DNA from: a virus
Virus record (IMG/VR): IMGVR_UViG_3300025030_000039
Location: 60,878-124,877 of that record
Direction: 5' to 3' (one strand)
DNA length: 64,000 bases
Position numbers and translations under genes: made by a program. Below are positions 1-47,023 of this stretch, in pieces (position 1 is the stretch's first letter; each line of letters starts with the position of its first letter). Below the pieces are notes generated by a model. That model ran no database searches and had not been told where the DNA came from. It saw nothing but the letters and a program-made list of their open reading frames with translations.

Positions 1-269
1 TTATTATTCCATATTATTAATCCTTTTTCATTTCCATATTTATCTAAATAATATTGTTTAGATGAATAATATTTACACTTTAATTTATATTCTTTATATT
101 TTTTATTTCCTTCTATTTCACCGTATTTTAGTATATACTTTTCTAAACTTACTCCTCTAATAAATTTATGATATAATTTATATGCTTCTTCAATAGAAAA
201 TTTATTAATTAATTCATTCCATTTACTAGGATATGTTTTAACATCTATTCCTTTTAACATCTGCTCCAT
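1..269 (-). CDS. Hypothetical protein, partial. The ATG is at 267..269 and the ORF runs off the window start without a stop. It lies immediately downstream of the NrdJ split-intein N-fragment ORF and could be a free-standing endonuclease sitting between intein halves.
   Basis: Open minus-strand frame from the ATG at 267..269 to position 1 with no stop; translation begins MEQMLKGIDVKTYPSKWNELINKF. It is absent from the ORF track because it is unterminated. Confidence 0.3.
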   Translation of the reverse strand, partial: MEQMLKGIDVKTYPSKWNELINKFSIEEAYKLYHKFIRGVSLEKYILKYGEIEGNKKYKEYKLKCKYYSSKQYYLDKYGNEKGLIIWNN

Positions 270-305: not shown

Positions 306-2150
306 TTAATTTATTTTTTTAATTATTTTATCACCTACTTTTAATTCTTCAGCATTCTTCCAAATTGCTTCTTTATCATTAATTAAAACTAAAAATTTAT
401 GAACTTTACTTGTAAAAATATTGTAATCTTTATCTAATTTAAATCTATAACCCTCTGTTTTTCCATTCCAATATAATTTTGTTATTTTATTATAGTTTCC
501 ATTTATATCTAAAATATTAATAGGTTTAATTAAATCAAACCATATATTATTTTTAGTCTCAAGTTCTTTAATATTAACACCATTTATATTAAATATTTCT
601 TCTAATGAAATATCACCTATATCAGTTTTAATTATAGCATCTTTTTCTAAACATCCCGTGGGGGCGGCTGTTAGTAAACCTATATTTCTTCTTCCGTGTT
701 TAATTAACAGTTCACTTACTTCAGAATCTGCTTTAATTAATCTTTGAATAAATGAATTTCCAATTTCTTTATCTCCATCATATATTTTAAAAGATCCTCT
801 ATCTTTTGCTAATAAACATGATGATTTATAAACTTCAATTGCCATTATTTTATGAACTTCTTCAGAAAATTTTATAGCATCATCTGTAGCATAAGTTAAA
901 CCTAATGCAGCTAACATGTCTCCTTCAGCAGTAATACCGATTCCAACTCTTCTGCCTAATAAAGCTTTTTCTTTAATTTTTTTCCATAAATTTAACTCTA
1001 TTAATTTAACTTCATCAGATTCTTTATCATTATTAATTTTTTCTAATATTTTATCAATTTTTTCTATTTCTAAATCAATAATATCATCTGATATTTTTAC
1101 TGCATATTTTATATGTTCTTTAAATAACTCAAAATTAAATTTTGCTTCTTTTGTAAATGGATTATCTATATATGAATATAAATTTATAGCAAGTAACCGA
1201 CAGCTGTCATACTTACATAGGGCGATTTCCCCGCACGGATTTGTAGAAACAGATTTAAATCCAACATCTGCATAACAATCTGGCACTGATTCACGTATTA
1301 TAGTATCCCAAAATAATATTCCAGGTTCAGCTGATTTCCATGCGTTGTGAATAATTTTTTTCCATAATTTTTTAGCATCTATTTCTTTAACTATTTTTGC
1401 TTTTTCTTTTTGTACGTTTATGGGATATTGTTGAAAATATGATGTATTATTTAAAACTGCCGTCATAAATTCATCATCTAATTTAACTGATATATTAGCA
1501 CCAGTAACTTTACCTTCTGCTAATTTAGCATCAATAAATTCTTCTGTATCTGGATGTTTTATAGATATGCTAAGCATAAGGGCCCCCCTTCTGCCGTCTT
1601 GAGCTACTTCTCTAGTAGAATTAGAGTATCTTTCCATAAAAGGAACTATACCTGTAGATGTCAGTGCAGAATTTTTAACAGCAGATCCTTTTGGTCTAAT
1701 ATGACTTAAGTCGTGACCAACACCGCCTCTTCTTTTCATTAATTGTATTTGTTCTTGATCTATTTTTAAAATAGATCCATAAGAATCACCTTCATCACCA
1801 ATGACAAAACAATTAGATAATGAAACAATTTGTAAATTATTTCCAATACCCGACATAGGACCGCCTTGTGGAACAATATACTTAAAATCCTTAATTAATT
1901 CAAATATTTTATCTTCTGATATTGGATTAACATAATTATTTTCTATTCTTGAAATTTCACCTGCTAATCTGTGATGCATATCATCAGGTGTTTTTTCATA
2001 AAATTTTCCATCAGAATCTTTAATAGCATATTTATTTAAAAATACTTTTGCTATCATTTCATCTCCTTTAAAATATTTTAAAGATTCTTCTAAAGCTTCA
2101 TTATAAGTATACGTATTAATAACTTCTTTATTAATTTTAGTCATTTCCAT
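306..2150 (-). CDS. nrdJ: Class II (B12-dependent) ribonucleotide reductase NrdJ, N-terminal extein of about 499 aa fused to a 115 aa split-intein N-fragment. The C-terminal extein is not in this ORF.
   Basis: STNPCGEIAL matches the NPCGE active-site motif of class II RNRs. The ORF ends shortly after the conserved APTG motif, where a Cys-initiated intein-like sequence begins. Confidence 0.75.
   Translation of the reverse strand: MEMTKINKEVINTYTYNEALEESLKYFKGDEMIAKVFLNKYAIKDSDGKFYEKTPDDMHHRLAGEISRIENNYVNPISEDKIFELIKDFKYIVPQGGPMSGIGNNLQIVSLSNCFVIGDEGDSYGSILKIDQEQIQLMKRRGGVGHDLSHIRPKGSAVKNSALTSTGIVPFMERYSNSTREVAQDGRRGALMLSISIKHPDTEEFIDAKLAEGKVTGANISVKLDDEFMTAVLNNTSYFQQYPINVQKEKAKIVKEIDAKKLWKKIIHNAWKSAEPGILFWDTIIRESVPDCYADVGFKSVSTNPCGEIALCKYDSCRLLAINLYSYIDNPFTKEAKFNFELFKEHIKYAVKISDDIIDLEIEKIDKILEKINNDKESDEVKLIELNLWKKIKEKALLGRRVGIGITAEGDMLAALGLTYATDDAIKFSEEVHKIMAIEVYKSSCLLAKDRGSFKIYDGDKEIGNSFIQRLIKADSEVSELLIKHGRRNIGLLTAAPTGCLEKDAIIKTDIGDISLEEIFNINGVNIKELETKNNIWFDLIKPINILDINGNYNKITKLYWNGKTEGYRFKLDKDYNIFTSKVHKFLVLINDKEAIWKNAEELKVGDKIIKKIN
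309..653 (-). mobile_element. Split intein N-fragment (IntN), 115 aa, containing intein blocks A and B and followed by a stop codon.
   Basis: Starts CLEKDAII (block A, C-x-x-x-D-x-x-I) directly after extein TAAPTG. TSKVHKFLV resembles block B. The tail HKFLVLINDKEAIWKNAEEL resembles the Npu DnaE IntN tail HKFMTVDGQMLPIDEIFERELDL. Length and stop position are typical of naturally split inteins. Confidence 0.6.
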
Positions 2151-2164: not shown

Positions 2165-4108
2165 TTATTTTTTATATTCAAATTTATAGTTACCTGTTCC
2201 AAAACACCTATAACAACCTCTATCATGCATTATATCTACCTCTGTTAAACTTGGATCTGCTCCTTCTTTAATTAATTTATCCTTCCTAAACTTAAACCTA
2301 TTCTCCCTTAAACCATCTACTACCCACCAATAATTCAAACCAGTATGCCCTATATATTTAAAACCTAATTTTATATATAAGTTATCTTGCTCATCAACCG
2401 TCCAATCACAATCGGCATAACTTATTATTCTATTCGGTATATACTCCTTTATAAAATGCTTAAATAAGCGACTAGCTCCACCAATAACTGAAGTATCTAA
2501 TTTATTAGCAAATCTAGTCAACTCATACTCTCCTTCTTTAGCTACTTGATTTAAATTTTTACGTAGTTTACCAAAGGTCATTAATGATACTAACTCATCA
2601 TTATAATATAAACCTAATTTAACAGCTGCATTAACATTACCTTGTAAATGGTTCCTATTTAAAAACTCTCTACTATCACTAGAGGACACCTTTTTAACTA
2701 TACACTTTCTAGCGTATATTTTATTATATGTTAAATTTAAAATTTGTTTTAGTCTCGATTTAACTATTTCTTGCTTATTTAACCAATCATCTTCCCATAT
2801 ATGTATGAGTTTAACTCCTTTTTCTTTAGCTAATGCTGTCTTATTTAAATGATAATCTTTAAGTTTATTGAATTCATTGTGCCAATAAACTCCATTATGT
2901 TCTATTCCAATCTTATTATTTGGTATATAAATATCTATCTCATTACCATTTAAAATAGTTCGATCTTTTTTAGTTTCTATATTTAAATCATTTATAAATA
3001 ATTTAATCTCTTCTTCATTTTTACTTTCAAAAGAATTTGTAGAATTTAAAGGATTACATATTGTACAAATATTAACATTATAATGATGTCTTTGATGTAA
3101 AAGATGTATATTTATATTTTTATAATCTTTGCATTCACTACAATAAAAATCCAATGTTCCATTTTCATATACCTGTTTAATATCTAAATTATTATATCGT
3201 TCTTTTATTTTATTTTTATGTTTTTCAAATATAATTTTTTTAAAATATATACTCTTAAAAATAATTTTGTTTTTGTATCGTTCTAAATTAGTATCCTTAA
3301 TTTTTTCTTGTATATCTTTACACTGTGCTACATTTTCAACTCCATAACGTTCTAAATTAGTATCCTTAATTTTTTCCTTAATATCTTCTCTTTGTAATGT
3401 ATTTTCAACTCTATAACGTTCTAAATTAGTATCCTTAATTTTTTCTTGTATATCTTTACACTGTGCTACATTTTCAACTCCATAACGTTCTAAATTAGTT
3501 TTTTTAATTTTTTCTTGTACATCTTTTCTTTGTATAGCATGCTCTACTCCATATAGTTCCAAATTATTTTTAATAATCTTATCTTTTATATCTTTATATT
3601 GTAAACTACATTCAACTCCATATTTTTTAAAATTAGTTTCTTTAATTTTTTCCTTAACATCTTTTGCTTGAAAACTATGCTCAACTCCATATCGTTTTAA
3701 AAATGTTTTTTTAATTTTTTCTTTTACAATATTACTTGATCCTGAATTTTCACATCCATATCTTTCTAAATTAGTTTTTTTAATTTTTTCTTGTACATCT
3801 TTTCTTTGTAAAACAGATGTAATTCCTTCATTTTTTAAAAGTCTTTCTTTAGTTTTTATATGTGCACATTTTAAACATGAATATTTATCTGTTAATTTAT
3901 TGGTCTGTGAAAAATATTTATTATATACAACTTTTTTTTCAATACCACAATAATCACATTTAACATTAATTTTAATACCACAGCCGGAATTTAAATTATT
4001 AATATCTAAAATTATTATTGATTTTATTTTAATATCTAAATATAAATTTTTATAAAATCTTATATTATTTGAAGTAATATTAATTTCAACATTTTTATCT
4101 AAAATCAT
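2165..4108 (-). CDS. Homing-endonuclease-like protein of 647 aa. It has an N-terminal Cys-rich zinc-finger-like region, an array of about six tandem 33 aa KIKxTNLERYGVEN repeats, a Vsr/DUF559-like PD-(D/E)xK nuclease-like domain, and a C-terminal domain of unknown function.
   Basis: CDYCG...CLKCAH Cys pairs; repeated EKIKKTNLERYGVE modules; IDIYIPNNKIGIEHNGVYWHNE...KLIHIWEDDW resembles Vsr/DUF559 endonuclease motifs. The ATG overlaps the stop of the upstream polB fragment as ATGA. Confidence 0.55.
   Translation of the reverse strand: MILDKNVEINITSNNIRFYKNLYLDIKIKSIIILDINNLNSGCGIKINVKCDYCGIEKKVVYNKYFSQTNKLTDKYSCLKCAHIKTKERLLKNEGITSVLQRKDVQEKIKKTNLERYGCENSGSSNIVKEKIKKTFLKRYGVEHSFQAKDVKEKIKETNFKKYGVECSLQYKDIKDKIIKNNLELYGVEHAIQRKDVQEKIKKTNLERYGVENVAQCKDIQEKIKDTNLERYRVENTLQREDIKEKIKDTNLERYGVENVAQCKDIQEKIKDTNLERYKNKIIFKSIYFKKIIFEKHKNKIKERYNNLDIKQVYENGTLDFYCSECKDYKNINIHLLHQRHHYNVNICTICNPLNSTNSFESKNEEEIKLFINDLNIETKKDRTILNGNEIDIYIPNNKIGIEHNGVYWHNEFNKLKDYHLNKTALAKEKGVKLIHIWEDDWLNKQEIVKSRLKQILNLTYNKIYARKCIVKKVSSSDSREFLNRNHLQGNVNAAVKLGLYYNDELVSLMTFGKLRKNLNQVAKEGEYELTRFANKLDTSVIGGASRLFKHFIKEYIPNRIISYADCDWTVDEQDNLYIKLGFKYIGHTGLNYWWVVDGLRENRFKFRKDKLIKEGADPSLTEVDIMHDRGCYRCFGTGNYKFEYKK
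3240..3830 (-). repeat. Tandem 99 nt coding repeats, about six copies, some nearly identical (for example 3296..3350 versus 3435..3500).
   Basis: Direct sequence repetition seen in the DNA, for example ttttttcttgtatatctttacactgtgctacattttcaactccataacgttctaaattagt twice. It encodes the 33 aa repeat array of the 647 aa protein. Confidence 0.7.
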
Positions 4109-5523
4109 GCACTTTTTCTTTTTTCTAATATATGTTTAATTTCATCTGCTTCCATTTCATATTTAAACATTTCTTTTTTATATTCTTTTCTTTGACTATA
4201 AAGTCTATTCAATATACCTTTTAATATTGAATCTTTTGTACTATATACACACCCATTAACTGCTACAATTCTATCATCTTGTTTATATTCATTTCTTACA
4301 TCAGGATCAACTTTCATTATAAATGAATCAGGAGATACATTCATCTGTCTCATAATCGAAGGATAAAGTGATGCAAAATCAAAGCAAGCTACTGCTTTAT
4401 GACGTCCTGTAATTGGTTTTTTAACATAAGCACCTTCATATTGTTCATCTTTATTTTCTTTTCTAATATTAAAATCTGAGGCTAATATTTTGTTATCTTT
4501 TAAAAATTCTCTTGCTAATAATGATTCAGTAATTGAAACTGGTGAATCAGCTTTATAAATACTAATTTTACATAGATTAGCTAATGTTAAAACTATTTCC
4601 ATTGTTTTAAGTTTTTCATGAATTAGCATTACTAATAATGTATCAACTGCAGTATAAAATACATATTTTTCAAAATCTTTTTCTAATAGATCTTTTAAAC
4701 TTCCATCGTAACTAATTTTCTTTAAACCTACTACTACCTCTGCTACCGTATTTAATTTAAAATTTTCTTTGACATCTACACTTCTATCCCATGCTTTATA
4801 AAGATCCATATAGTCCATTATTCCAACATGTAGTGGAATATCATTATTTTGATTATTTAATTTTCCGCTTGGTGATGCTATAGAAGGATCAATTCCTAAT
4901 CGACGAGCTCTATTTATAATATATTTCCAATCATAACCAATTACATTCCAACCACTCATCATTGGTATTTTTTTCTGTACTATTTCACTTAAAAAAGTAT
5001 ACAGCATGTCATATTCTGTATCAAACTTTTTATAAATAAAGGTAAATTTTTTACCAGTTTGTTCAAAGTATTTATCTATACTAGATTGAACATTAGCAAT
5101 ACTTTTTGCAGGCAAATTCAAATGTGAAAATACGATTACTTGATTTTTAGGAGTTGTAAAAGTAATTGTAGTAATTTTTTCTTTTGCAGAATCTGCTTCT
5201 GGAAATCCATCAACAATTTCAACTTCTATATCAATAAAATAAATATCTGGATAGTGTGTTCCAAAAATTTCATCTTGATCTTCTTTAGATAATCTTTCAA
5301 ATAATTCTGTTATTGAATGTTTATTTAAAAATTTTGAAGTATATTTTTTAACAGCACGTCCATCCCAATTTGTAAACTTCTTATCTTTTGATTTATCACT
5401 TTCACGACAAATCATCCAATTAGATATATTTTTTAATGGTATTGTTTTAAATGAAACTTTTCCTTCACTATTATAATAAGATATAATTAATGAATTACCT
5501 TCATTCTCAATGTCTAATAGCAT
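4105..5523 (-). CDS. Family B DNA polymerase, N-terminal fragment of 472 aa carrying the exonuclease region and polymerase motif A. It is truncated before motif B.
   Basis: FIDIEV contains the Exo I DxE motif. CFDFASLYPSIM is the motif A DxxSLYPS. KGILNRLYSQRKEYKKEM corresponds to the GILPxILExLLxARKxxKxEL linker that precedes motif B in pol delta-type enzymes. The ORF then stops; no KxxxNSxYG or YGDTDS motif follows. Confidence 0.8.
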   Translation of the reverse strand: MLLDIENEGNSLIISYYNSEGKVSFKTIPLKNISNWMICRESDKSKDKKFTNWDGRAVKKYTSKFLNKHSITELFERLSKEDQDEIFGTHYPDIYFIDIEVEIVDGFPEADSAKEKITTITFTTPKNQVIVFSHLNLPAKSIANVQSSIDKYFEQTGKKFTFIYKKFDTEYDMLYTFLSEIVQKKIPMMSGWNVIGYDWKYIINRARRLGIDPSIASPSGKLNNQNNDIPLHVGIMDYMDLYKAWDRSVDVKENFKLNTVAEVVVGLKKISYDGSLKDLLEKDFEKYVFYTAVDTLLVMLIHEKLKTMEIVLTLANLCKISIYKADSPVSITESLLAREFLKDNKILASDFNIRKENKDEQYEGAYVKKPITGRHKAVACFDFASLYPSIMRQMNVSPDSFIMKVDPDVRNEYKQDDRIVAVNGCVYSTKDSILKGILNRLYSQRKEYKKEMFKYEMEADEIKHILEKRKSA

Positions 5524-6395: not shown

Positions 6396-6860
6396 TTAAC
6401 CTTCAAGATTTTGTGAAGCATTAATATCTCCAATATAAGCTTCTACATCATCATCTGTCAATTCAGCTTGTTTACCGTTTTCTAATTGTACTAAATATTT
6501 TCCTGTATCTTCACTCCATGAAATAATATCGCCTACTAATCCATCAGCTTTACATTTAACTTTAGATCCAGGTATTAAATGACTTTCACCAACCAATTTT
6601 TGAGTTTTAGCTCCTAATCTATTATTATCATCATTAACTATAACTTCAATTTCAGTTTCATTAAATTGTTGTTGTCCACTATCATCTAAACTAACATTAT
6701 ATTTTTTAATATCTTCACTCCAAGAGTTTAAATATCCTAATTGACCACTAGCTTTTACTTTTATTCTAGTACCTGGTGTTATAACATCGGCTTCTTTAAC
6801 CAAATGCTGATTAGTTTTAACGTCGTTTACAAACTCTTCAAATAATTTTACGTATTCCAT
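6396..6860 (-). CDS. Hypothetical protein with a leader-like N-terminus (MEYVKLFEEFVND) and two tandem copies of a roughly 50 aa small beta-domain.
   Basis: Internal duplication TRIKVKASGQLGYLNSWSEDIKKYNV / SKVKCKADGLVGDIISWSEDTGKYLV. Confidence 0.45.
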   Translation of the reverse strand: MEYVKLFEEFVNDVKTNQHLVKEADVITPGTRIKVKASGQLGYLNSWSEDIKKYNVSLDDSGQQQFNETEIEVIVNDDNNRLGAKTQKLVGESHLIPGSKVKCKADGLVGDIISWSEDTGKYLVQLENGKQAELTDDDVEAYIGDINASQNLEG

Positions 6861-6880
6861 TGTATATTGTTTTTATTTAT

Positions 6881-7264
6881 TTATTTGTATTCTGTTTTAA
6901 ATTCATTAAACGTTTTAATGAATTTTAATTTCTTTTTTTTATTTAATAGTATATCACCTGATCCTAGTATTTGTTTTGAAAAATTAGTTGACAAATCAGG
7001 ATCACCAGGCAATTTAACTGAACCTATTCCATTAACATTAATTGGAGTACTTGCTACTGGGGCAGTGCTTGTAATAGAAGTATTTTCATTAGCTTTTTTC
7101 ATTTCTTCATCAGTAGTATGCGCATAATCTTTTATTTCTTTTATAGTCATTCCATTTGCAGCATCAATTACTTCTTTACTAACTTCTGATTCTTTCTTTT
7201 TACCTTCTTTATATGCTAAAACTATATTAAAAAAAGCTCTCTGTTTTACACTAGTTGATGGCAT
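6881..7264 (-). CDS. Hypothetical protein.
   Basis: ORF only; N-terminus MPSTSVKQRAFFNIVLAYKEGK. Confidence 0.4.
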   Translation of the reverse strand: MPSTSVKQRAFFNIVLAYKEGKKKESEVSKEVIDAANGMTIKEIKDYAHTTDEEMKKANENTSITSTAPVASTPINVNGIGSVKLPGDPDLSTNFSKQILGSGDILLNKKKKLKFIKTFNEFKTEYK

Positions 7265-7272
7265 AATATAAT

Positions 7273-7557
7273 TTATTTTGTCATATCTATTCCTAATAAA
7301 TCTTTAGCTAATTTTAATGCATCAGGTTCATCTACTATTCCACTCTTAACTAATTCAGAATAGTATTTAGGATTTTCTGTTAAATGATCGATTGCAACTT
7401 CTTTTGCTGTTGATTTATCACTAGAGTGTTCAGCTTCTACTGCAATTCCAACTTCTAATTCATTTTTATCGATAGTTGATTCATCAGTATCATCACCTTT
7501 ACCTCCAATTAAAACTTGTTCATTAATAAATTCTAAATAAGTTTTTACAAATTCCAT
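7273..7557 (-). CDS. Hypothetical small acidic protein with a leader-like N-terminus (MEFVKTYLEFINEQ).
   Basis: ORF; N-terminal similarity to the MKYILEYEEFLLE leader family. Confidence 0.4.
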   Translation of the reverse strand: MEFVKTYLEFINEQVLIGGKGDDTDESTIDKNELEVGIAVEAEHSSDKSTAKEVAIDHLTENPKYYSELVKSGIVDEPDALKLAKDLLGIDMTK

Positions 7558-7567
7558 ATTATTGTTT

Positions 7568-9529
7568 TTATTTATATATTTCTTTTTTTAATTCATCATA
7601 AAATGAATGTAATACTGTTGGAACCATAACTTTAAATACTTCATAATTATCATCTTTAATTGCAGTTCTAACAACCGATGCACTAATATCTTCATCTGCT
7701 CTTTTAATTTCAAATAACTCAAAATCATTTAGCATATTTAATTCATCTTTATATTTATCTATTTGTATTTTGAATGTTTTTAATCTATCTGTACCTACTC
7801 CCCATTTTAGAGGTTCATATTCAGGACGTAATGAATTAAATATTTTATCTACTGATGCTGAATCAATAATAAATACATTTTCTAGAAACTCATAATTTAA
7901 TTTTAGTGCATCAAACATTCTTAATTGTAATTCTTTATCGAAAGGATTTAAATCTTTATCTTGTGAAGTCTCTTTACCTTTAACTATAAAAATTATAACA
8001 GGGAGTTTATTTGTCATATGTAATTTATTTAAAACTTTTATATGACCTAATGTAAAAGGTTGAAATCTTCCTACAAATATATTTACTTGTTGTTTTCCAT
8101 GTTCTTTATCTTTAATATTTAATGCTTCGAATGTTGAATCTTCTAATTTTTCTATATTACTTTCTAATTTATTTAATTCTTTTTTTAAAAAATCAATAGT
8201 TGGAATATTTATAGGATTACTTTCTATTGTTATAGTTATACTATTTTCAGAAACGTCTTCCTCTTCTTCATATATATTATCATTCATTTCTTTCATAATA
8301 ATATAATCACCAAAAGTTTTAAATGAATCATCAGATTCAGCTTCTGTTGCATCTTTTATTTTTCCTATTATAATATTAATTTCTTTAATAATAGGTTCTG
8401 TTAATACATTGGTAGTCTTTTTTCTCTTTTTTCTTAATGATGATAAAAATATTTTAAATAAATCTTTTAATTTATCTGATGAATTTAAATATTCTTTTGT
8501 CTTTTGATTTTTAATTAATTCAATATTTAAATCAAATTCTTTCTTTTTTGCAAAACTTGGAGTTTCAAAATCTATATCTTTGTATTTATCTATATTTTTA
8601 TTAACATACTTATTAAATATATCACAAATAATTTCAATATATCTTTCATCAGGTTTAATAGATAAAATGCCAACAGATAAAACGGATTTATTTCTTTCTA
8701 TAAATTCAATTATATCTAATAATATTATTGAATAAATATCTTTAATAGTTCTAGTATCTTGTACTTTATTTTTCTCTTGTATATTTTTTATAATTGGATC
8801 TATTATTTTTCCAATATATGTTTTATCATTGTGCTCATCAAAAAATTTAAATACAATTGAATCTATAGGTTTAATTAAATCATTATTTAATGTAGTTTTT
8901 TTAAGAGATGGATTTAAAATACTTATAATATATTTAGTAAATGAATCTGTTCCAAATATATCACCTAAAGAATCTTTATCAGTTTTTATAAAATCTTTTA
9001 TTTGATTTTTTTGCTTATCATTTAATACACCTTCAAAAATAATAGGAGGACCTTGTACTTCTAGTTTATTAGCCCATTCATTTAAAATTTTAGAATTATC
9101 TATAACTTTAATTGTTTTATTTTGATTATTTTTTACCAATATATGTGTTAATACTAAATTATTAGTAGGTAAATTATCATAAACAATATTTACTGGACTT
9201 TTATTTACAAAATATTGAAAACTAAATCTCCAATTATCTGGTATTTCTTTTAAAACAGATTTATCAATTTTATTAACAAAATGATTTCTAACAGATTCAT
9301 AATATATCATTAATGTTCTATCTATAATACTTAATGGAATTCTATCATCCCTTTTAAATATATCTATTGGGTCATTAACGATATTTTTTCTATCAGCATC
9401 TATTTTTTGAACATATACTGTAGATCCATCTAAATTTTCACTTATAATCGTATATTTTTCGAGTAATTCTTCAATAAACTTATTACCCTGTTCTTTATAA
9501 ATATCTTTTATTTCTTGTATTCCTGCCAT
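7568..9529 (-). CDS. 653 aa protein. The C-terminal roughly 190 aa form an NMN/NaMN adenylyltransferase-like (HxGH cytidylyltransferase) domain. The N-terminal roughly 450 aa are unassigned.
   Basis: NIFVGRFQPFTLGHIKVL matches the GRFQPFHxGH signature of NadM/NMNAT-type adenylyltransferases. The N-terminal part contains ISENLDGSTVYVQK, weakly reminiscent of the KxDG nucleotidyltransferase motif but lacking the Lys. Confidence 0.55.
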   Translation of the reverse strand: MAGIQEIKDIYKEQGNKFIEELLEKYTIISENLDGSTVYVQKIDADRKNIVNDPIDIFKRDDRIPLSIIDRTLMIYYESVRNHFVNKIDKSVLKEIPDNWRFSFQYFVNKSPVNIVYDNLPTNNLVLTHILVKNNQNKTIKVIDNSKILNEWANKLEVQGPPIIFEGVLNDKQKNQIKDFIKTDKDSLGDIFGTDSFTKYIISILNPSLKKTTLNNDLIKPIDSIVFKFFDEHNDKTYIGKIIDPIIKNIQEKNKVQDTRTIKDIYSIILLDIIEFIERNKSVLSVGILSIKPDERYIEIICDIFNKYVNKNIDKYKDIDFETPSFAKKKEFDLNIELIKNQKTKEYLNSSDKLKDLFKIFLSSLRKKRKKTTNVLTEPIIKEINIIIGKIKDATEAESDDSFKTFGDYIIMKEMNDNIYEEEEDVSENSITITIESNPINIPTIDFLKKELNKLESNIEKLEDSTFEALNIKDKEHGKQQVNIFVGRFQPFTLGHIKVLNKLHMTNKLPVIIFIVKGKETSQDKDLNPFDKELQLRMFDALKLNYEFLENVFIIDSASVDKIFNSLRPEYEPLKWGVGTDRLKTFKIQIDKYKDELNMLNDFELFEIKRADEDISASVVRTAIKDDNYEVFKVMVPTVLHSFYDELKKEIYK

Positions 9530-9560
9530 CAGTATTAAAATTTAATGATTATATTATATA

Positions 9561-10826
9561 TCAAAAACGAAGCAAACCCATAATTTGGTTTACAGGAGAA
9601 AAGGATCCCGTTAATTTATATCTCTTTGAATTATAAACAAATACAATTCCTTCAGAAGGCATTATTGAATCAAATCCACCTAAAGCTTCTATTTTATTTA
9701 AGTTTAATTGTAATACATCTAATAATCCTTTTCCACCAGTATTTTCTATTTCTTTAATCTTTTTATCTAAATTATCTTTAATAACTTTCACTGTATCATT
9801 AGAATTAACGGATAAAAATCCACTTATATTTTTTAAAACAGTAACACCTAATTCTGTAAAAATACTCTCAAATTTATCTCTTATATTTTGTCTAATATTT
9901 TTAATTGAATCAGATTTTTCTAGCATTTTAATAAATCCTAAATTATTTAGTTCTAATTCTTTTATTGATATAATAGTTCCATTTTTAAAAGCTAAACGTT
10001 TAGCTGCTCGTTCAAACACATCTCCGTCAAAATCAGTTTCATGTTTAGCAATACTATTTAAAATAATTTTTTTCCAAAATTCTATATGCCATTCTTCTAA
10101 TGTAGAATTATCATTCATATCCATTGAATCTCTAATATCATCAATTTTTTTATGAAAATAATTTTGTTTAACAGAAAAATCGTTATGCTTAGAAATATTT
10201 AAATAATTTGGTTCATGAACTTTAAATATGCTATTAATACTTTTATTTACTAAATTTATTACATCAACAATATTTTTAGATATTTTATTATTTTCATCAA
10301 TTGGATTTCCATCAAAATCATAACTTATAAATCCATGCATAATTATTTTAGGTGAATCATATACAATAACATTTGGAGAACTTGGATATATTATTTCAAT
10401 ATTCATAAACTTTTTACCTGTTTCAAATTCAACATCTAATATTGATTGATCTATTTTAGAAAATATTTTATTTAATTCGGTTATAGCTAATGAAAATGCT
10501 TTAGATAATTCTCCTCTATTTTCAAATTTTTGTATTAATTGATCTACTGTTAAAGCATCTTTACCATAATTTTTTAAATGACCTTTATTTCTTGCTGTAA
10601 ATAATTGTCCATGTTTCCATGTTATTGATAAAGCATATCCATCCAATTTTTCAGATATTAATTCTTCTTTATCTAAATATCCTCCAAGTGCTCTATCAAC
10701 TATCGTTTTTAAATCTTTAAATGTTAAACTATAATCTTCAAAAGGATGATTTAAATGTCCGTAACTTCCACCTTCTAAAATTAAATTTTCATTTAAAAAT
10801 TCTTCATAAGATTTTAAAAATTTCAT
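9561..10826 (-). CDS. RNA ligase, Rnl1-like, 421 aa, with a leader-like N-terminus (MKFLKSYEEFLNENL).
   Basis: Motif I EKLDGYALSI (KxDG); FMNIEIIY resembles motif III; SEGIVFVYNSKRYKLTG resembles motif IV (EGxV) plus the motif V Lys. Confidence 0.6.
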   Translation of the reverse strand: MKFLKSYEEFLNENLILEGGSYGHLNHPFEDYSLTFKDLKTIVDRALGGYLDKEELISEKLDGYALSITWKHGQLFTARNKGHLKNYGKDALTVDQLIQKFENRGELSKAFSLAITELNKIFSKIDQSILDVEFETGKKFMNIEIIYPSSPNVIVYDSPKIIMHGFISYDFDGNPIDENNKISKNIVDVINLVNKSINSIFKVHEPNYLNISKHNDFSVKQNYFHKKIDDIRDSMDMNDNSTLEEWHIEFWKKIILNSIAKHETDFDGDVFERAAKRLAFKNGTIISIKELELNNLGFIKMLEKSDSIKNIRQNIRDKFESIFTELGVTVLKNISGFLSVNSNDTVKVIKDNLDKKIKEIENTGGKGLLDVLQLNLNKIEALGGFDSIMPSEGIVFVYNSKRYKLTGSFSPVNQIMGLLRF

Positions 10827-10834
10827 TTATAAGA

Positions 10835-11320
10835 TTATTTTATGCATTCAATTATTAAATCACATTTATGTGGTCTAATTTCTAAATTGTTTAAATATTC
10901 AATTTCACTTTTTCTATAATCAGTTTCAAATGCATTTTTAAAACCAATATCTTTAACAGTTCCTATTAAATGATCAGCATCCCAAATATATTGATGTCCC
11001 CATTTTTTCATTCCTTCATTCATTAAATCAGCAGCACAAGAAGGAGTCCATCCTACTTCACTCCAATATTCTAAATCATTTTCTAAATATTTTGTTGCTA
11101 ATGTTTTTAAATTTGGCATACTCATTCTCATTCTACACCCAGGTTTTAAAACTCTAAAACATTCATTTAAAAAAGTGATAGCAGTTTCTTTGGGTAAATG
11201 TTCCATGAAGTGTTCAGAAAAAATACAATCAACTGAACTATCCTTATATGGTAATTTAGGAGCAGTCCAGTTGATTATATTTTTTTTATTAGCTTTATCT
11301 AAATTATGCCATCCATTCAT
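10835..11320 (-). CDS. Class I SAM-dependent methyltransferase-like protein (Methyltransf_11-like C-terminal motifs). The N-terminal glycine-rich SAM loop was not seen, so it is possibly truncated.
   Basis: LPYKDSSVDCIFSEHFMEHL and FRVLKPGCRMRMS match the acidic/hydrophobic motif and the RVLKPGG motif of type 11 methyltransferases. The ORF is only 161 aa and lacks the GxGxG motif. Confidence 0.45.
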   Translation of the reverse strand: MNGWHNLDKANKKNIINWTAPKLPYKDSSVDCIFSEHFMEHLPKETAITFLNECFRVLKPGCRMRMSMPNLKTLATKYLENDLEYWSEVGWTPSCAADLMNEGMKKWGHQYIWDADHLIGTVKDIGFKNAFETDYRKSEIEYLNNLEIRPHKCDLIIECIK

Positions 11321-11385
11321 AGCGTTTGGACCTGCACCTATATTTAATCTAATAGCATCTGTAGGATCAATATCAACGACAGTAG

Positions 11386-12249
11386 TTACTTTTTTTTTGA
11401 ATATTCGTCGTTTAATTCTTCTAATCTATGTTGTTTATAAAAAGTTAAGGCATCTTTAGATTCCCAGTCAGGTAACATTGAATATGCTTTTTCATATATC
11501 ATATGAATATCAGATTCTGTATTTAATTTAGCAAATATTTTTTCATTAAGATGAGTATACTTTGTTAAAAATTTATCTACTTGATTACTATCAAATACTT
11601 TATCTTTTTTGCCTTTACATGCTTCTATAATTTTTGCATCAAAATCTTCTTTTACTTTGCTATCACCTTTCCATTCAGATTTAATTTCATCCCAGAATTT
11701 TTTCTTTTTTTCTGGATCTAATTGCATTGGAGAATTAACATTATATTTTTTTAATTTACTCTTAAAAAAATCTTTATATTCTTCTTCATTAATTACTGCT
11801 TCTTTTAATTGATCTTTTTCAATTGCATCAGGAACTTTTTGATCAGCTGCATTAGTTATTTTTTTATCAGCTTCAGTATTTACAACAACTGGATCAATTT
11901 TAATTTGATCAGTAGCAGTAGCTGGAGTTTCTTTTACAACATCAATTGGATCAGGAACTTTTTGATCAGCTGCATTAGTTATTTTTTTATCAGCTTCAGT
12001 ATTTACAACTTTAGGATCAATTTGGCCTTCAATTTTATTTGGAAGTTCAGCTTCTTTTTTCTTTGCAGTTAAACCTTTATGAATTTCATCATAAAATTTT
12101 TTTCTATCATCATCACTTAGATTACTTAAATCTTTAATTTGAAATGCTTTCATTACATCATTAAATATTCCTGCAATAGCATCAGCTTCAAGAATAGAAG
12201 TTTCTTTAAACTTATTATAAATGTCAGACATTTTACCGATTTTATTCAT
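11386..12249 (-). CDS. Hypothetical protein with an internal duplicated segment.
   Basis: ORF; the duplicated peptide VVNTEADKKITNAADQKVPD is encoded by a 60 nt direct repeat. Confidence 0.4.
   Translation of the reverse strand: MNKIGKMSDIYNKFKETSILEADAIAGIFNDVMKAFQIKDLSNLSDDDRKKFYDEIHKGLTAKKKEAELPNKIEGQIDPKVVNTEADKKITNAADQKVPDPIDVVKETPATATDQIKIDPVVVNTEADKKITNAADQKVPDAIEKDQLKEAVINEEEYKDFFKSKLKKYNVNSPMQLDPEKKKKFWDEIKSEWKGDSKVKEDFDAKIIEACKGKKDKVFDSNQVDKFLTKYTHLNEKIFAKLNTESDIHMIYEKAYSMLPDWESKDALTFYKQHRLEELNDEYSKKK
11829..12008 (-). repeat. 60 nt direct repeat in two copies at 11829..11888 and 11949..12008 (120 nt period) inside the coding sequence.
   Basis: tcaggaactttttgatcagctgcattagttatttttttatcagcttcagtatttacaaca occurs twice. 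Confidence 0.7.
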
Positions 12250-12270
12250 AATTTATATTTTTTTCTTTTT

Positions 12271-12870
12271 TTATATATCACCCGTTCGTATCAAATATTC
12301 CTTAATTATCTCTAATGTAGTTATTGATGGTCTCCAATATAATTTTATTTTACTTTCAATATTATCTAATAATGTATCATAATATTCATTTTTATTATGT
12401 ATTCTATTAGGAGCTGATGATATCCAATATTCTATATCATCAAAATTAAATGTTGATTGTGCACCATATAATATATGAAATTTATTTTCTAATTCTGTAT
12501 AAGCTTTATTAAATTTAATATCTTTTAATCTATTATTTAGTCTAATTAATTCGTCATATAATATTTCTAATGTTTTATCGACATCATGTTGTGTATTATT
12601 ATCTGCAATTGTGTGATACCTCAAAAAATTTCCTATTTTATCCCTATTTATATCAAATGGTATTTTCCAATCCGTATGAATATTAAATCCAATTTTTTTA
12701 CTTACTTCTTTGGGAGCATAATTTTGTTTTAAATCTATAGGAAACTTTCTTCCATTAACCAGCCATTTAAATGTTCCATCTTGTGATTTATTCACAATAT
12801 CTTTAACAAAAGATTCATCACTAATATTTGATTTATTTAAAAATTTTTCATATTCTAATATAAATTTCAT
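12271..12870 (-). CDS. Hypothetical protein with a leader N-terminus (MKFILEYEKFLNK).
   Basis: ORF; member of the conserved N-terminal leader family. Confidence 0.45.
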   Translation of the reverse strand: MKFILEYEKFLNKSNISDESFVKDIVNKSQDGTFKWLVNGRKFPIDLKQNYAPKEVSKKIGFNIHTDWKIPFDINRDKIGNFLRYHTIADNNTQHDVDKTLEILYDELIRLNNRLKDIKFNKAYTELENKFHILYGAQSTFNFDDIEYWISSAPNRIHNKNEYYDTLLDNIESKIKLYWRPSITTLEIIKEYLIRTGDI

Positions 12871-12895
12871 TATAAATACTTATTTGATTTATATA

Positions 12896-14410
12896 TTAAA
12901 ATTTTATATTTTGCATAGTGTATGAAAATTTTTGTTCTTTATAAATTTCTTTTCTAGCTTCAGCATGCTTAAACAAATAATTAACAAAAGTTTTGCCGTT
13001 TTCTAGTTTATATCGCATATCATCAACAAAATCAATTATAATTAATTTATCTTTTCTATTATGCAAACGTAATCCACGTCCGATACTTTGACGAATTATA
13101 ATTTCTGATTTAAAACTTTCTGTAAAAAATACATTATGTATATTAGTTATATTAATTCCGGTCGAAAAAGTTCCAAATGAAGCAACTAATAATCGTTTAT
13201 CCCCTACTTCCATTAATTTTTTATAATCTTCTCTTAAATCTTTATCTGTACCACCATCAACATAATATACATCTCCTTCATAAATATTTCTTAATAAATC
13301 ATAAAGTTTTTTACCATGTTCTATTCTATGAAATAATATTAAACTATTTTTAGTTGATTTTTTAATTACATTAGCAATAAATTTTAATCTCTTATTACTT
13401 TCTGCTACATAATCTTGTTCTAATTTAAAAACTTTTTTCCTTTCATCTTCATTAGATGATTTAGATAACCATAAAAATGCCTCTTTTTGTTCATCTGAAA
13501 CATAATCCATATAAATCATTTTTACTTCACATGGACTTATAAATCCTTTATTAATTAAATAATCTGCACTAATATTTGTAATTAATGGACCTGTATTAGA
13601 CATTAAATTATATCTATCTATTGTTTGTGGTTTAGGAATAGTTCCACTTACCCCGAAACGATAATCACAATGCCAACACCTATCTAGTATTTTACAGATT
13701 GACGAACTATTTGCTTTATGTGTTTCATCTATTATAACAATATTAAATTGTTTAAAATATTCTTCATCTTTTTTAACTAATGATTGATATGTTCCTATTA
13801 CGAGATTAGTATTTTCTTTTAATTTCATTCCAGAAAATATCTGTTGTATTTTAAGTGTTACTTTTTCATCAGTATTATAATCATTAAAATCTTCAGTTGC
13901 TTGTAATACTAAAGATACATTTGGAACTATTAATAATATTTTTTCAGCTACATCATATTCTAAAAGATATGCAATAACCATAAACACTATTAACGATTTA
14001 CCGGCACTAGTAGCTAATTCAGCTAAACATCTTCTATAACGTAATATTTTATATGCGGTATCAACTTGATAATCACGCGGCTTTTTTTCGTTACCTTCAA
14101 AAAATTTATCAACCCATTTATAAAATTCTTCTTTTTCAATATCTATATTGAATAATTTTATAGTATCAATTAATTTTAATGGTAAATTATGCTCTTTAAA
14201 AACTTCCATAACTTCCATCCATAAACCAGAAGGAAGTTTATTACCCTTAACAAAACAAACGTCCCCACTCCACACACCTCGCTTCACAAGTGGATGAAAT
14301 CTCCAATTATCTATACGTTTAGTAAAACTAAGCTTAAGTTGTTCATATTCATGTTCAGTTGCTTTAGTTATGTATAAATATCTTCTATCAGGACTTAATT
14401 GTAATTCCAT
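12896..14410 (-). CDS. SF2 DNA helicase (UvsW/DEAH-like).
   Basis: Walker A ATSAGKS, motif II IIDETH, motif III SGT and motif VI QSIGRGLR. Confidence 0.8.
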   Translation of the reverse strand: MELQLSPDRRYLYITKATEHEYEQLKLSFTKRIDNWRFHPLVKRGVWSGDVCFVKGNKLPSGLWMEVMEVFKEHNLPLKLIDTIKLFNIDIEKEEFYKWVDKFFEGNEKKPRDYQVDTAYKILRYRRCLAELATSAGKSLIVFMVIAYLLEYDVAEKILLIVPNVSLVLQATEDFNDYNTDEKVTLKIQQIFSGMKLKENTNLVIGTYQSLVKKDEEYFKQFNIVIIDETHKANSSSICKILDRCWHCDYRFGVSGTIPKPQTIDRYNLMSNTGPLITNISADYLINKGFISPCEVKMIYMDYVSDEQKEAFLWLSKSSNEDERKKVFKLEQDYVAESNKRLKFIANVIKKSTKNSLILFHRIEHGKKLYDLLRNIYEGDVYYVDGGTDKDLREDYKKLMEVGDKRLLVASFGTFSTGINITNIHNVFFTESFKSEIIIRQSIGRGLRLHNRKDKLIIIDFVDDMRYKLENGKTFVNYLFKHAEARKEIYKEQKFSYTMQNIKF

Positions 14411-18113: not shown

Positions 18114-19832
18114 TTATTTATATTCGATATCATCAAATAAAATAGGTATACGTTTCTTGAATTCATCTAAAAGTGGACGCATTAATTCTCTCATTTGAGG
18201 ATGGGCTGCATTTGCAACTCTTAGTTTAAAAATATGTCTCCAATCTCTAATATTAGTTGACATATTTATTTCAGTCTTTAATGAATTTGGTAATACTGAT
18301 CTTGCTTGTTGTGGAGACCATTTGTAATCATTCATTAATTTATTATAATATTGTTCAGATTTTAACATTGATGTTAACCATTGTACATTTACCGAAGGAT
18401 AATCAAAATCTTTTGCTAAAGCATTAACATCAAATTCTGTATAAATATGTTCTTTAATATCTAACCATTCTGGTATAATAAAAGTAATATTATCATCTTT
18501 ACTATAATTACAATAACGGGTACTATTATGAACTATAAATCCATTAGCAATATAATTAGAATATGGTTCTTTCATTTCTATATCATAAGTATCTTCTACA
18601 CCAATATATGTAATACTTATAATTTCATCTATTATTCCTTTAACACCTATATGCCAACCGTGATGTAATAAATTATGACAACTACAGCATACTTTTGTAA
18701 GATTTATATCTTCATTATTGTTTAGATCTTTATCTTTATGATGAACTTCTAATTTAATATTACTTCCACATAATTCACATGAAAATATATTTTCTTTCTT
18801 AAATCTTGCTTCATCTCTACCTCTCAGTCCGCCACTCCAATTAGAATTATCTTCTCCAAATCCATTGTTATGATGGTTAAGCCTTAACGAATTTGCTTGC
18901 CTTTTAACTGATACATTATTATCCTCGGTTAATCCTTTATTCCAGACAACTCTCCCATCATTGTACTGTTTTTGTATTGTATTTTTAATTTTAATATATG
19001 AATCAGCAGTATGATTTTTATTGTACTTATCTTTATCTTTATCATTTTTTCGTTTAACAAAAATATTAAGTGTTTGAAGTTTAGTAAGAATTGTTCTATA
19101 TGGAATAGAAAATTCTTCACTAATTTCCGTAGGAGATAACCCAACTATATTATATAATCTAATTAATTCATTATCAGATAACGTGCATAAATTAGGTCTG
19201 CCATTAACTATAACCTTACTACCAATACTTAAATTTCGTAATTCTTCATATTTGTGAGTACTTGTCAAAAATCTATGAGTATTAGTACACTTTATTTTAT
19301 ACCCCAATTTAGTAACAACTTCAAATATTACATTATTACCCTTAAAGAATATAGCATTAAAATGATTAGATACTATTTCATTATTTTCATTTATACTTCG
19401 TAAAGTTAATGTCTTATTATGAGTTCTGTCATAATTTGTACCATGTTCTTGTCTTTCATATAATTCTTTGATAGTAATATTTTTATTAGAGGTTGACTTA
19501 ATAATAGTATCACCTGTTACACATTCTTGGGCAAAACTAGCTATTCTGTGTCTAACTAATTCATGACTAACTCCTCTATCACATGTAAATTTAACAGTAA
19601 TATTACCACCGAATTCTAACATTGCTTCGTGACCCATTTTAATAAGTTTAGCAATAAGTACTCTTGCTGATATAGCATCTAAATCATATAATTCACCATT
19701 AGGTGTTCTATGACCTATTTCTATTTTACCTTCGCTTTTATAACAAGTTCTAGCCGCTATTTCAATTTCTTTTAAAATACTTTCTCCATCAATAGGAGTT
19801 AATATTTCATATTTTGATTTGATTAAATTCAT
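18114..19832 (-). CDS. thyX: FAD-dependent thymidylate synthase ThyX, interrupted in-frame by a 333 aa intein that contains an HNH endonuclease motif.
   Basis: Joining the exteins gives RHRIASFAQE|STRY, the ThyX RHRxxSxxxxSxRY signature. The intein begins CVTGDTII and ends GFIVHN followed by Ser. Inside it are VHHKDKD...CCSCHNLLHH (HNH) and a helix-turn-helix-like segment. Confidence 0.85.
   Translation of the reverse strand: MNLIKSKYEILTPIDGESILKEIEIAARTCYKSEGKIEIGHRTPNGELYDLDAISARVLIAKLIKMGHEAMLEFGGNITVKFTCDRGVSHELVRHRIASFAQECVTGDTIIKSTSNKNITIKELYERQEHGTNYDRTHNKTLTLRSINENNEIVSNHFNAIFFKGNNVIFEVVTKLGYKIKCTNTHRFLTSTHKYEELRNLSIGSKVIVNGRPNLCTLSDNELIRLYNIVGLSPTEISEEFSIPYRTILTKLQTLNIFVKRKNDKDKDKYNKNHTADSYIKIKNTIQKQYNDGRVVWNKGLTEDNNVSVKRQANSLRLNHHNNGFGEDNSNWSGGLRGRDEARFKKENIFSCELCGSNIKLEVHHKDKDLNNNEDINLTKVCCSCHNLLHHGWHIGVKGIIDEIISITYIGVEDTYDIEMKEPYSNYIANGFIVHNSTRYCNYSKDDNITFIIPEWLDIKEHIYTEFDVNALAKDFDYPSVNVQWLTSMLKSEQYYNKLMNDYKWSPQQARSVLPNSLKTEINMSTNIRDWRHIFKLRVANAAHPQMRELMRPLLDEFKKRIPILFDDIEYK
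18525..19523 (-). mobile_element. Intein (Hint domain plus HNH homing endonuclease) inserted in thyX.
   Basis: The Cys codon at 19521..19523 starts the intein and the His-Asn codons at 18525..18530 end it, followed by the +1 Ser extein residue. Confidence 0.8.
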
Positions 19833-45819: not shown

Positions 45820-47023
45820 AATTGTAATTTTTATTATTTATTATATATTCATTTTTATAAACCCAGAAGTACCCATTATATATACTTTTATCAGATATTG
45901 ATTTCCTAATTTTTATTAAATTATAATTAAGCTCTTTTATTTCTCCTATGTTATACCATTCTTTTACTATATTACTATTAATATCTAATTGTAAAATAGG
46001 TTTAGATGAATGGTTATTTTTTCCTTTTTTACCATACATTCCATTTTTACTACCCATTTTAGATTCGCTTAATTTTTTTCTATATTCTGTACTATTCATT
46101 GCATTTCTCCATGCTTCTGAATTCTTAATTGCCTCACTCATTTTTTTGCTATATTCTTTACTTTGCATAGCAATCTTGTGTGCCTCAGAATTTTTAATTA
46201 TTTCAGATCTTTTTGTTCTATATTCTTCACTTTGCATAACAATCTTATGTGCATTTGAATTTTTAAGTGCTTCACTTTGCTTTTTTCTATTAGCATCTAT
46301 ACTATAATATTTTTTTAAACTATTACTTACTTTTTTATTGCGCTCTTTACTTCGCATAGCGATCTTATGTGCCTCAGAATTTTTAATAATTTTACTCATT
46401 AATATACTTCTTTCTTCACTATGTATATAAGTTTGAAATTTTTCTGAGTTTTTTAATGATTCACTTATTTTTTTACCATGTTCTTCACTATGTATGCTAT
46501 TTTGAAATTTTTCAGAATTTTTTAATGATTCGCTTAATTTTTTTCTATATTCTGTACTTTTCATAAGAGTCTTATGAATTTCAGAATTTTTTAATCCATC
46601 TGAAAGCTTTTTTAAATATACTGGATCTAAATATAATTGTTTTCTTATTATTGAATTTTTTAATCCATCTGAAATTTTTTTTCTTATTTCTTCGCTCGGA
46701 TTTAATTTTATTAAACTTATTTTTTTCTTAGTTTCTTCACTATGCTTTAAGTTAGTCATAGGAGCTTCACCACCTAAAGAAATGTTATAACCTATACTTT
46801 TATTACTTGAATTATAATAAGATATCCAATATATTTCTCTATCATTTAAATACTCTCTTTTTTCACATTCCTCAAGTATTTCTTTCTTAAAGTTTTCTTT
46901 TCCATATTTATTTATTGCTTTTATAATAAGCAAACCTGATCCTAAATATTCAGGATCATTTTTGTATGATTGTCCAATATAAATTTTATTGTTAATCAAA
47001 TTTGTAGTTTTATAAATTATCAT
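45797..47023 (-). CDS. GIY-YIG homing endonuclease with an unusually long array of about 12 NUMOD3-like DNA-binding repeats.
   Basis: IYKTTN...KIYIGQS gives the GIY and YIG motifs; repeated SEExRKKISExLKNS modules. The ORF overlaps the start of the adjacent structural gene by 23 nt. Confidence 0.85.
   Translation of the reverse strand: MIIYKTTNLINNKIYIGQSYKNDPEYLGSGLLIIKAINKYGKENFKKEILEECEKREYLNDREIYWISYYNSSNKSIGYNISLGGEAPMTNLKHSEETKKKISLIKLNPSEEIRKKISDGLKNSIIRKQLYLDPVYLKKLSDGLKNSEIHKTLMKSTEYRKKLSESLKNSEKFQNSIHSEEHGKKISESLKNSEKFQTYIHSEERSILMSKIIKNSEAHKIAMRSKERNKKVSNSLKKYYSIDANRKKQSEALKNSNAHKIVMQSEEYRTKRSEIIKNSEAHKIAMQSKEYSKKMSEAIKNSEAWRNAMNSTEYRKKLSESKMGSKNGMYGKKGKNNHSSKPILQLDINSNIVKEWYNIGEIKELNYNLIKIRKSISDKSIYNGYFWVYKNEYIINNKNYNYGIRSTY
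46060..46740 (-). repeat. Tandem degenerate coding repeats of about 48 to 51 nt each (NUMOD3-like modules).
   Basis: Repetitive DNA; it produces the spurious plus-strand ORF 45948..46307 with a repeated peptide. Confidence 0.6.

Follow-up and report, generated by a model that had tools for sequence, protein, structure and literature searches.

A family B DNA polymerase gene in three pieces in the genome of an uncultured phage

Polymerase gene pieces and their junctions

The 64,000 nt stretch analyzed here, called the window, belongs to the IMG/VR record IMGVR_UViG_3300025030_000039. Its coordinates 1-64,000 equal bases 258381-322380, on the same strand, of LR756500.1, an unannotated "uncultured phage" record of 462,018 bp with about 24% G+C. 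Close to the window start it contains a gene for the N-terminal part of a family B DNA polymerase (PolB-N), the stop codon of which overlaps a free-standing, putative homing-endonuclease gene (HEG647). The whole LR756500.1 record was scanned for polymerase motifs, and two further pieces of the polymerase, PolB-mid and PolB-C, were found outside the window; open reading frames (ORFs) beyond the window are given in record coordinates (Table 1).

The PolB-N product matched the Pfam families DNA_pol_B_exo1 (E-value (E) 1e-13) and DNA_pol_B (profile positions 16-154 of 453, E 7e-19). It comprises the N-terminal domain, the 3'-5' exonuclease with strings resembling Exo I-III (FIDIEVE, NVIGYD and YTAVD), motif A of the palm (DFASLYPS), and the first helix of the fingers, in which R445 and K449 lie. 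The alignment of PolB-N covers residues 112-503 of RB69 gp43, and the invariant R445 and K449 align with the R and K of the RB69 'QRKEHK' stretch. The GILNRLYSQRKEYKKEM stretch was found in the tail of the protein, and the stop follows 26 residues further on. An AlphaFold2 (AF2) model of PolB-N had a predicted local distance difference test score (pLDDT) of 86 and a predicted template modelling score (pTM) of 0.80, and residues 433-471 formed a single terminal helix of 39 residues. When folds were compared by TM-score, RB69 and T4 gp43 were closest (0.69 on the query, 0.38 on the target), and the matched region was approximately the N-terminal half of the target. DFASLYP is the sole motif A in the window, and neither motif B (K...NS.YG) nor motif C (.DTDS) was found in its six frames. 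The ORF, Pfam and motif scans thus agree with the first-pass annotation of this DNA, which had placed a split between motifs A and B and had seen no C-terminal half in the window. The overlap of the PolB-N stop with the start codon of the 647 aa ORF was also read as described there; the four shared bases stand in the context GTGC-ATGA-TTTT and suggest translational coupling of PolB-N and HEG647. The next gene downstream is indeed nrdJ, encoding a ribonucleotide reductase (RNR) large subunit that ends in an intein N-fragment.

The catalytic half had been expected elsewhere, possibly past the window start on the minus strand and in an ORF with motifs B and C. In the record-wide scan, motif A, motif B (KLTLNSIYG) and an in-ORF motif C (YIDTDS) each occurred exactly once, the latter two on the minus strand at record 251.8-252.0 kb. 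A further DTDS match, at record 406 kb, has stop codons on both sides. PolB-mid lies downstream on the same strand, past the window start, with 10,301 nt separating its start from the stop of PolB-N; the expected location was thereby confirmed. The expectation of one missing half held in part: KLTLNSIYG and YIDTD are present in PolB-mid, and the thumb was found as well, but a split intein and an endonuclease gene (HEG567) interrupt this half within motif C, the serine of which is in a second gene.

PolB-mid contains, in this order, the finger tip, the second fingers helix, motif B, YIDTD and a 119 aa intein N-terminal fragment (Int-N) with Ser as its first residue; its Pfam matches were DNA_pol_B (positions 138-241) and Intein_splicing (positions 22-87). 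PolB-C begins with a 43 aa intein C-terminal fragment (Int-C) ending in ILVHN, followed by SCYLAF, which opens with the Ser of DTDS, the KKKY motif (AKKKYM) and the thumb, and it matched the C-terminal block of Intein_splicing (positions 119-155). Spliced in silico, PolB-mid and PolB-C give a chain of 407 aa that aligns to RB69 gp43 residues 517-835. Together, the three pieces cover RB69 gp43 with nothing catalytic lost.

The first break (break 1) lies between the two fingers helices. In RB69 numbering, PolB-N stops near residue 503 and PolB-mid begins near residue 517, which places the break in the loop at the tip of the fingers domain. Inteins or protein-splicing elements had been considered as possible flanks of this break, and none was found: no Pfam intein domain is present in PolB-N, the tail of which is the fingers helix, and PolB-mid starts with finger-tip sequence that contains no intein blocks F/G. 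An Rfam scan of the 14.5 kb from PolB-N through the gap to PolB-mid revealed no intron or other RNA family, which excludes a group I intron like that of phage 25 in this stretch. Because it has no intein, break 1 is not a fractured gene in the sense of Dassa et al. 2009.

The second break (break 2) cuts motif C between DTD and S, and Ser+1 opens the extein of PolB-C. The spliced chain is colinear with uninterrupted PolB-C subunits of 380-425 aa in relatives, and its junction YIDTD/SCYL (the slash marks the splice junction) is identical to a continuous homologue. Int-N, a free-standing endonuclease ORF, Int-C and colinear exteins, which characterize a fractured gene, are all present at break 2. 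The intein aligns with the split inteins of Tenacibaculum phage PTm1, Aeromonas phage Aes123 and Pseudomonas phage MIJ3 (split intein only; PMC6892783) at the same DTD/S site. The four inteins share Ser1, Ser+1, an R/K-H motif, a TxDHS block and an ILVHN/S block; the R/K-H 'NX' motif is known from Ser1 inteins (PMC10189870). None of the catalytic intein residues is missing here (Ser1, R-H motif, T..H block, terminal HN and Ser+1), and by its sequence the intein belongs to the cysteine-less split inteins of the Aes123 PolB1 type. PolB-mid matched 739 clusters at E <1e-10; the best 120 of these were 196-321 aa long, and 119 of the 120 carried both PF00136 and the intein domain PF14890. Some of these clusters come from contigs of lengths that were also seen among the PolB-N homologues. 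Pieces composed of PolB-mid plus Int-N are thus widespread. The space between the two intein halves contains no endonuclease in some relatives, and in one of them it is occupied by an ORF of 391 aa.

Two alternatives to a split gene were considered. In the first, the stop would stem from an error in sequencing or assembly or from a programmed frameshift, and the gene would continue. The abrupt end of PolB-N is the only point in its favor, but the downstream frames encode an endonuclease instead of a polymerase, the polymerase continuation lies 10.3 kb away, and the identical 472 aa product was called on seven contigs from several assemblies. As the stop position is also common to relatives, the stop is not an assembly artefact. 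The position of motifs B and C at record 251.8-252.0 kb refutes this alternative, the probability of which is practically negligible. The second is that PolB-N is a decayed pseudogene or a truncated duplicate, as its missing motifs B and C might indicate, and that another polymerase replicates the genome. By tblastn no second copy of any polymerase piece, and by motif scan and tblastn no full-length or other polB, was detected in the 462 kb genome. In addition, hundreds of homologues are as long as PolB-N and 51-58% identical to it, and the catalytic residues are invariant; the AF2 model of PolB-N is confident, and matching C-terminal pieces are present and intact. A decayed copy is therefore extremely improbable. 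Both alternatives had been named by the first-pass annotation as outcomes that would overturn its reading of a split gene.

Table 1. Positions of the polymerase pieces and of other features. Coordinates refer to the window unless LR756500.1 is named.
Feature	Coordinates	Strand	Basis or remark
PolB-N (gp43A-like subunit, 472 aa)	4105..5523	(-)	ORF and Pfam domains
ATGA overlap, PolB-N TGA stop / HEG647 ATG start	4105..4108	(-)	Junction read as GTGCATGATTTTAG
PolB-mid plus Int-N (256 aa)	LR756500.1 251413-252183	(-)	ORF; Pfam
Int-C plus PolB-C (313 aa)	LR756500.1 248783-249724	(-)	ORF; Pfam
HEG647, free-standing, putative homing-endonuclease gene (647 aa)	2165..4108	(-)	Pfam, PHROGs
HEG567 (567 aa), between PolB-mid and PolB-C	LR756500.1 249717-251420		ORF; 60% identical to HEG647
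Endonuclease paralogue positions	LR756500.1 182153-188061, 191391-193238, 223125-224924, 231551-233164, 249717-251420, 406703-408139; window 2165-4108		
nrdJ-N plus intein N-fragment	306..2150	(-)	Pfam Ribonuc_red_lgC positions 1-390 of 523, Intein_splicing
nrdJ C-part	LR756500.1 256359-257531		Intein C-fragment (SHN/T), RNR profile positions 391-523, TSCPD domain
Free-standing endonuclease-like gene (376 aa), 5' part	1..269	(-)	Full ORF LR756500.1 257519-258649; phrog_22677
Gene for the protein of about 250 aa	LR756500.1 252704-253468	(-)	
ThyX-like ORF (572 aa)	18114-19832	(-)	By eye from translation
GIY-YIG-like ORF	45797-47023	(-)	By eye
DUF7487-repeat protein (401 aa)	59679-60884	(-)	
MKYI-peptide ORFs	54580-59340 and 6396-12870; e.g. 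55002-55532-, 55529-56140-, 56196-57197+, 57297-58313-, 58708-59340-, 9561-10826-	(see coordinates)	

Conservation of break 1 and the endonuclease genes

The analysis of relatives covered 28 related loci at 38-55% identity; an alignment-based scan for them replaced a single-sequence IMG/VR scan with PolB-N that had given only distant (25-31%) short contigs. Homologue-cluster figures for PolB-N rest on the best 120 clusters, which had lengths of 465-495 aa at 51-58% identity. In 27 of the 28 loci the ORF stops at the same place as here, and no match to HEG647 was found across the 28. A continuous PolB-C lies 3.8-6.9 kb downstream of PolB-N in 12 of the 27 split loci; in seven others PolB-C is absent from the next 10 kb. 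RNR genes directly follow PolB-N in all three relatives with called genes, which are endonuclease-free, and they lie between the halves in the one called-gene locus that shows the downstream half. An Hc1-like gene and a conserved gene for a protein of about 250 aa stand upstream of PolB-C or PolB-mid where this region is in view. Because the stop is kept in nearly all loci and none of them has a HEG647 match, the split is old and the endonuclease came later. Break 1 is accordingly ancient, and the wide gap of 10.3 kb is typical of the uncultured clade to which this phage belongs.

The one relative with an unsplit polymerase is L108 (IMGVR_UViG_3300028887_000076), in which positions 10001-12934 encode a PolB of 977 aa with 38% identity. 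In a neighbor-joining (NJ) tree, which is approximate, it was placed among split forms, and Sphingomonas phage PAU, PTm1, Chryseobacterium phage MA9V-2 and the present clade came together as split forms. L108 may represent either a re-fusion or a sign of independent splits; the tree is too rough to decide on a re-fusion.

The HEG647 protein begins with a segment rich in Cys, which is followed by DUF7487 repeats, a putative Vsr-like nuclease core and, at the C-terminus, a further domain. Pfam recognized three DUF7487 repeat stretches (E 4e-55), and the match of the core to the Vsr-like REase_MTES_1575 was weak (E 1e-5, under the curated cutoff). The match to phrog_3339, 'homing endonuclease', covered profile positions 135-535 of 536 with E 8e-134, and the motif scan found no polymerase motif in HEG647, in line with its earlier description as homing-endonuclease-like and devoid of motifs B and C. 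Its nuclease motifs EID, IEhNG..WH and hIWED are conserved and could be aligned to proteins of PTm1 and Aes123 that are annotated as VSR endonucleases. A PDB sequence search with HEG647 gave no match at E up to 1, I-Bth0305I included. The genome holds nine full-length DUF7487/Vsr-like endonuclease paralogues including HEG647, at 47-64% identity and all on one strand, and most of them sit between unrelated genes; four paralogues lie in record 182-188 kb, three of these directly adjacent (184734-188061). HEG647 is not a part of the polymerase and has the appearance of a selfish element. The nine paralogues and the absence of a match from all 28 loci are indirect support for a homing function. 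The C-terminal domain of about 190 aa occurs in all paralogues; its similarity to the Mom family of DNA-modification proteins is weak and below the threshold (E 4e-4).

The 10.3 kb gap contains about a dozen ORFs, among them HEG647, the fractured nrdJ, ATP-grasp-like, dUTPase-like and Hc1-like genes and several unknowns; the gap proteins of 254 aa and 169 aa had no match in Pfam or PHROGs. The first-pass annotation had proposed that HEG647 and the fractured nrdJ form one cassette that was inserted into an intact polB and thereby split it. HEG647 does abut the PolB-N stop with the ATGA overlap, and invasion of intein-less genes by endonucleases has been documented (PMC2677866). However, the relatives have the same stop and no HEG647 match, RNR genes directly follow PolB-N also where no endonuclease is present, and HEG647 is only one of several paralogues located mostly between unrelated genes. 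We therefore regard the cassette as very unlikely. Instead, the conserved split, the RNR genes in the gap of relatives, and the non-adjacent halves in PAU, MA9V-2 and PTm1 indicate that HEG647 is a later insertion into an old intercistronic gap.

HEG567 overlaps PolB-mid and PolB-C by 8 nt on each side. The same 11 nt, AATGAATAATT, occur at both of its boundaries (about 251413-251425 and 249717-249729), that is, at the junction of the Int-N stop with the HEG567 start and at that of the HEG567 stop with the PolB-C start. At both junctions the upstream ORF ends in NE followed by the stop codon, and the downstream ORF starts with MNN. The AATGAATAATT pair looks like a direct repeat around an inserted HEG567 ORF.

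In this genome, the gene for the protein of about 250 aa is separated from PolB-mid by the 169 aa ORF. Its orthologues (L013, L047-L059) stand immediately upstream of PolB-C or PolB-mid in 12 relatives analyzed by sequence, and L126-L128 have a 249 aa ORF in the same position, matched by position and length only. The protein had no match in Pfam, PHROG or PDB sequence searches; an accessory subunit of the polymerase, for example a clamp, would be compatible with its length and its place in the locus.

Known split polymerases and a proposed assembly

The layout had been thought to be more extreme than known split arrangements. This view was not upheld, since the same three-piece layout has already been annotated in the cultured phages Aes123 and PTm1, and the present phage is a further case. 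A polymerase gene broken in this way is the usual condition among these giant phages. In Aes123 (JN377899), a T4-type phage, gp43A is followed by gp43B1 with the N-intein, a VSR endonuclease, and gp43B2 with the C-intein. As here, gp43A ends at the finger tip, gp43B1 ends in an Int-N of about 120 aa, and a Vsr-like endonuclease gene comes next, followed by an Int-C of about 40 aa before the thumb; the intein has an alignable sequence with Ser1 and Ser+1 and also interrupts DTD/S. The difference is that the three cistrons of Aes123 are contiguous and gp43A abuts gp43B1, whereas the first two pieces are separated here by 10.3 kb and about a dozen genes. The endonuclease of the Aes123 intein locus has another architecture, and the likeness of HEG567 to it is weak (E 5e-4) and limited to the nuclease core. 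The Aes123 PolB1 split intein trans-splices (PMC11923092).

The jumbo phage PTm1, which infects a Bacteroidota host, also has the three pieces, and its piece 1 stands apart from piece 2: gp236 and gp239 (annotated as 'intein-containing split DNA polymerase precursor') have two genes between them, and gp240 ('VSR endonuclease') and gp241 come next. Its middle piece aligns with PolB-mid at 35% identity over extein and Int-N, and toward the C-terminus of Int-N the two sequences share long stretches of identity. In contrast to the present locus, the gap is about 2 kb, no endonuclease stands next to gp236, and no ribonucleotide reductase is found in the gap. PAU (gp105/gp110, four genes between) and MA9V-2 (192/196, three genes between) also have the finger-tip split and non-adjacent halves, 2.4-3.5 kb apart with dUTPase or other genes between them; they differ in that the C-terminal half is continuous and has no intein. 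Much larger distances occur in the Lak-A1 record, where PolB-N and PolB-mid matches lie about 222 kb apart, and in LR756504, a 636 kb uncultured phage, where they lie about 281 kb apart.

In the T4-related phages 44RR, 25, 31, 65 and 133, according to Petrov et al. as cited in PMC3061061 and PMC2677866, gp43A and gp43B are bicistronic and naturally split in the finger-tip region; the cistrons are 2 bp to 3 kb apart, in one case with a free-standing endonuclease gene between them. The spacing of 10.3 kb sets the present locus apart from these phages. Fingertip-split gp43 and an engineered fingertip-split Pfu polymerase are active (PMC3061061). Family B polymerases encoded in distant genes, two in each case, are known also from PhiKZ, Methanobacterium thermoautotrophicum (Mth) and Nanoarchaeum equitans. 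In PhiKZ, DNAP-N (gp82) and DNAP-C (gp50) carry motif A and motif C on separate chains that form a stable 1:1 complex (PMC13648687); the Mth PolB comes from distant genes (PMC3061061), and that of N. equitans comes from two distant genes with a split intein (PMC3061061, PMC2677866). These three differ from the present polymerase in being split at the palm insertion or the palm, and none pairs an intein-less split with a split-intein split. The C-terminal half of polB and nrdJ qualify as fractured genes as defined by Dassa et al. 2009, in which split-intein halves flank a free-standing Vsr-like endonuclease gene; family B polymerase is not among the enzyme types listed there (PMC2677866).

With a probability of roughly 0.85, the sole family B replicative polymerase of this phage is built from the three genes PolB-N, PolB-mid and PolB-C. 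PolB-N would supply the exonuclease, motif A and the first fingers helix, PolB-mid the second fingers helix together with motif B, the DTD portion of motif C and Int-N, and PolB-C the Int-C, the Ser that completes DTDS, the KKKY motif and the thumb. By analogy with the homologues, PolB-mid and PolB-C would be joined by protein trans-splicing to the 407 aa subunit, with …GVYIDTDSCYLAFGE… as the predicted spliced junction peptide. This subunit would then bind PolB-N non-covalently across the split finger tip, in parallel to gp43A/gp43B of 44RR, the engineered split Pfu and DNAP-N/C of PhiKZ. Both HEG647, with its start at the stop of PolB-N, and HEG567, within the locus of the intein, would be selfish homing elements that spread by cutting endonuclease-free alleles; HEG647 would have landed in a pre-existing gap, and the split would not be its doing.

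Several points weigh against this assembly. Expression, trans-splicing and complex formation in this phage are all inferred from homologues. Int-N opens with SIQKEAK here versus SV.G..I in PTm1, Aes123 and MIJ3, so that block A is divergent. As regards co-regulation of the pieces, a consensus scan detected promoter-like sites no more often than in shuffled sequence and no terminator-like sites on the coding strand. It is thus conceivable that the pieces are expressed and do not all assemble, PolB-N acting as a lone exonuclease, or the intein being inactive with PolB-mid and PolB-C associating non-covalently. The divergent block A would fit this alternative, as would the poor splicing in vitro of some natural split inteins (PMC11923092) and the relatives that keep the split intein and have lost the endonuclease. 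On the other hand, all catalytic intein residues are present, hundreds of homologous pieces are conserved, and motif C is cut between DTD and S, so that the active site probably requires an unbroken backbone. We consider incomplete assembly unlikely and favor the three-gene polymerase.

A further reading, which is unlikely, is that the fingertip split is an old and perhaps clade-defining trait of a very large group of jumbo and mega phages (PAU, PTm1, Lak, LR756501-4/LR745206 and hundreds of uncultured relatives), maintained because it is of use and not just tolerated. LR756501-4/LR745206 are uncultured phages of 634-735 kb, reportedly the Mahaphage group of Al-Shayeb et al. 2020. If this reading were true, the loosened finger tip could alter nucleotide selectivity and admit modified deoxynucleotides (dNTPs), as the engineered fingertip split does in Pfu, and the intercistronic gap could be a conserved landing pad, the nucleotide-metabolism genes in it being expressed along with the polymerase.

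The locus reveals no new mechanism. For annotation, it means that a 'truncated' PolB of about 470 aa in this genome and its uncultured relatives should not be called a pseudogene, and that the search for partners of PolB-N should extend over distances from kilobases to hundreds of kilobases and allow for fracture by an intein. The locus also adds to the Aes123 PolB1 type, a class of practical interest, a natural split intein that has Ser1 and Ser+1 and is cysteine-independent, and documents endonuclease turnover at an intein locus as well as a conserved order with RNR genes between the polymerase halves.

Ribonucleotide reductase and other neighboring genes

The nrdJ gene is a classic fractured gene. 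Its first part encodes the N-terminal five sixths of the ribonucleotide reductase large subunit and, from the junction APTG/CLEKDAIIKTD on, the N-fragment of a Cys1 intein. Between the nrdJ halves lies the gene for a 376 aa endonuclease-like protein, which extends past the window start and is of a family different from that of HEG647. In a related 259 kb phage contig (L013/L014, 12529-16373), a class I RNR large subunit is distributed over two ORFs of 420 and 593 aa with a DUF7487 ORF between them and no intein domain recorded; this may be an intein-less fracture.

Both ends of the 572 aa ORF in the window read as ThyX-like, and its middle reads like a contiguous intein (from QEC/VTGDT to VHN/ST) with HNH-like Cys/His motifs. 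If this is true, it would be the third intein-bearing nucleotide-metabolism gene in this stretch.

Two more free-standing endonuclease-like genes were noticed in the window. One is the GIY-YIG-like ORF with repeated NUMOD-like units, which lies just upstream of a 700 aa ORF; the other encodes the 401 aa DUF7487-repeat protein.

At least 19 otherwise unrelated ORFs genome-wide start with a near-identical peptide, MKYI(K/L)EYEEF(L/I), and the loose form of this pattern is never internal in any ORF. The peptide could serve all these proteins as an N-terminal signal for targeting, packaging or regulation, or reflect a shared 5' translation element.

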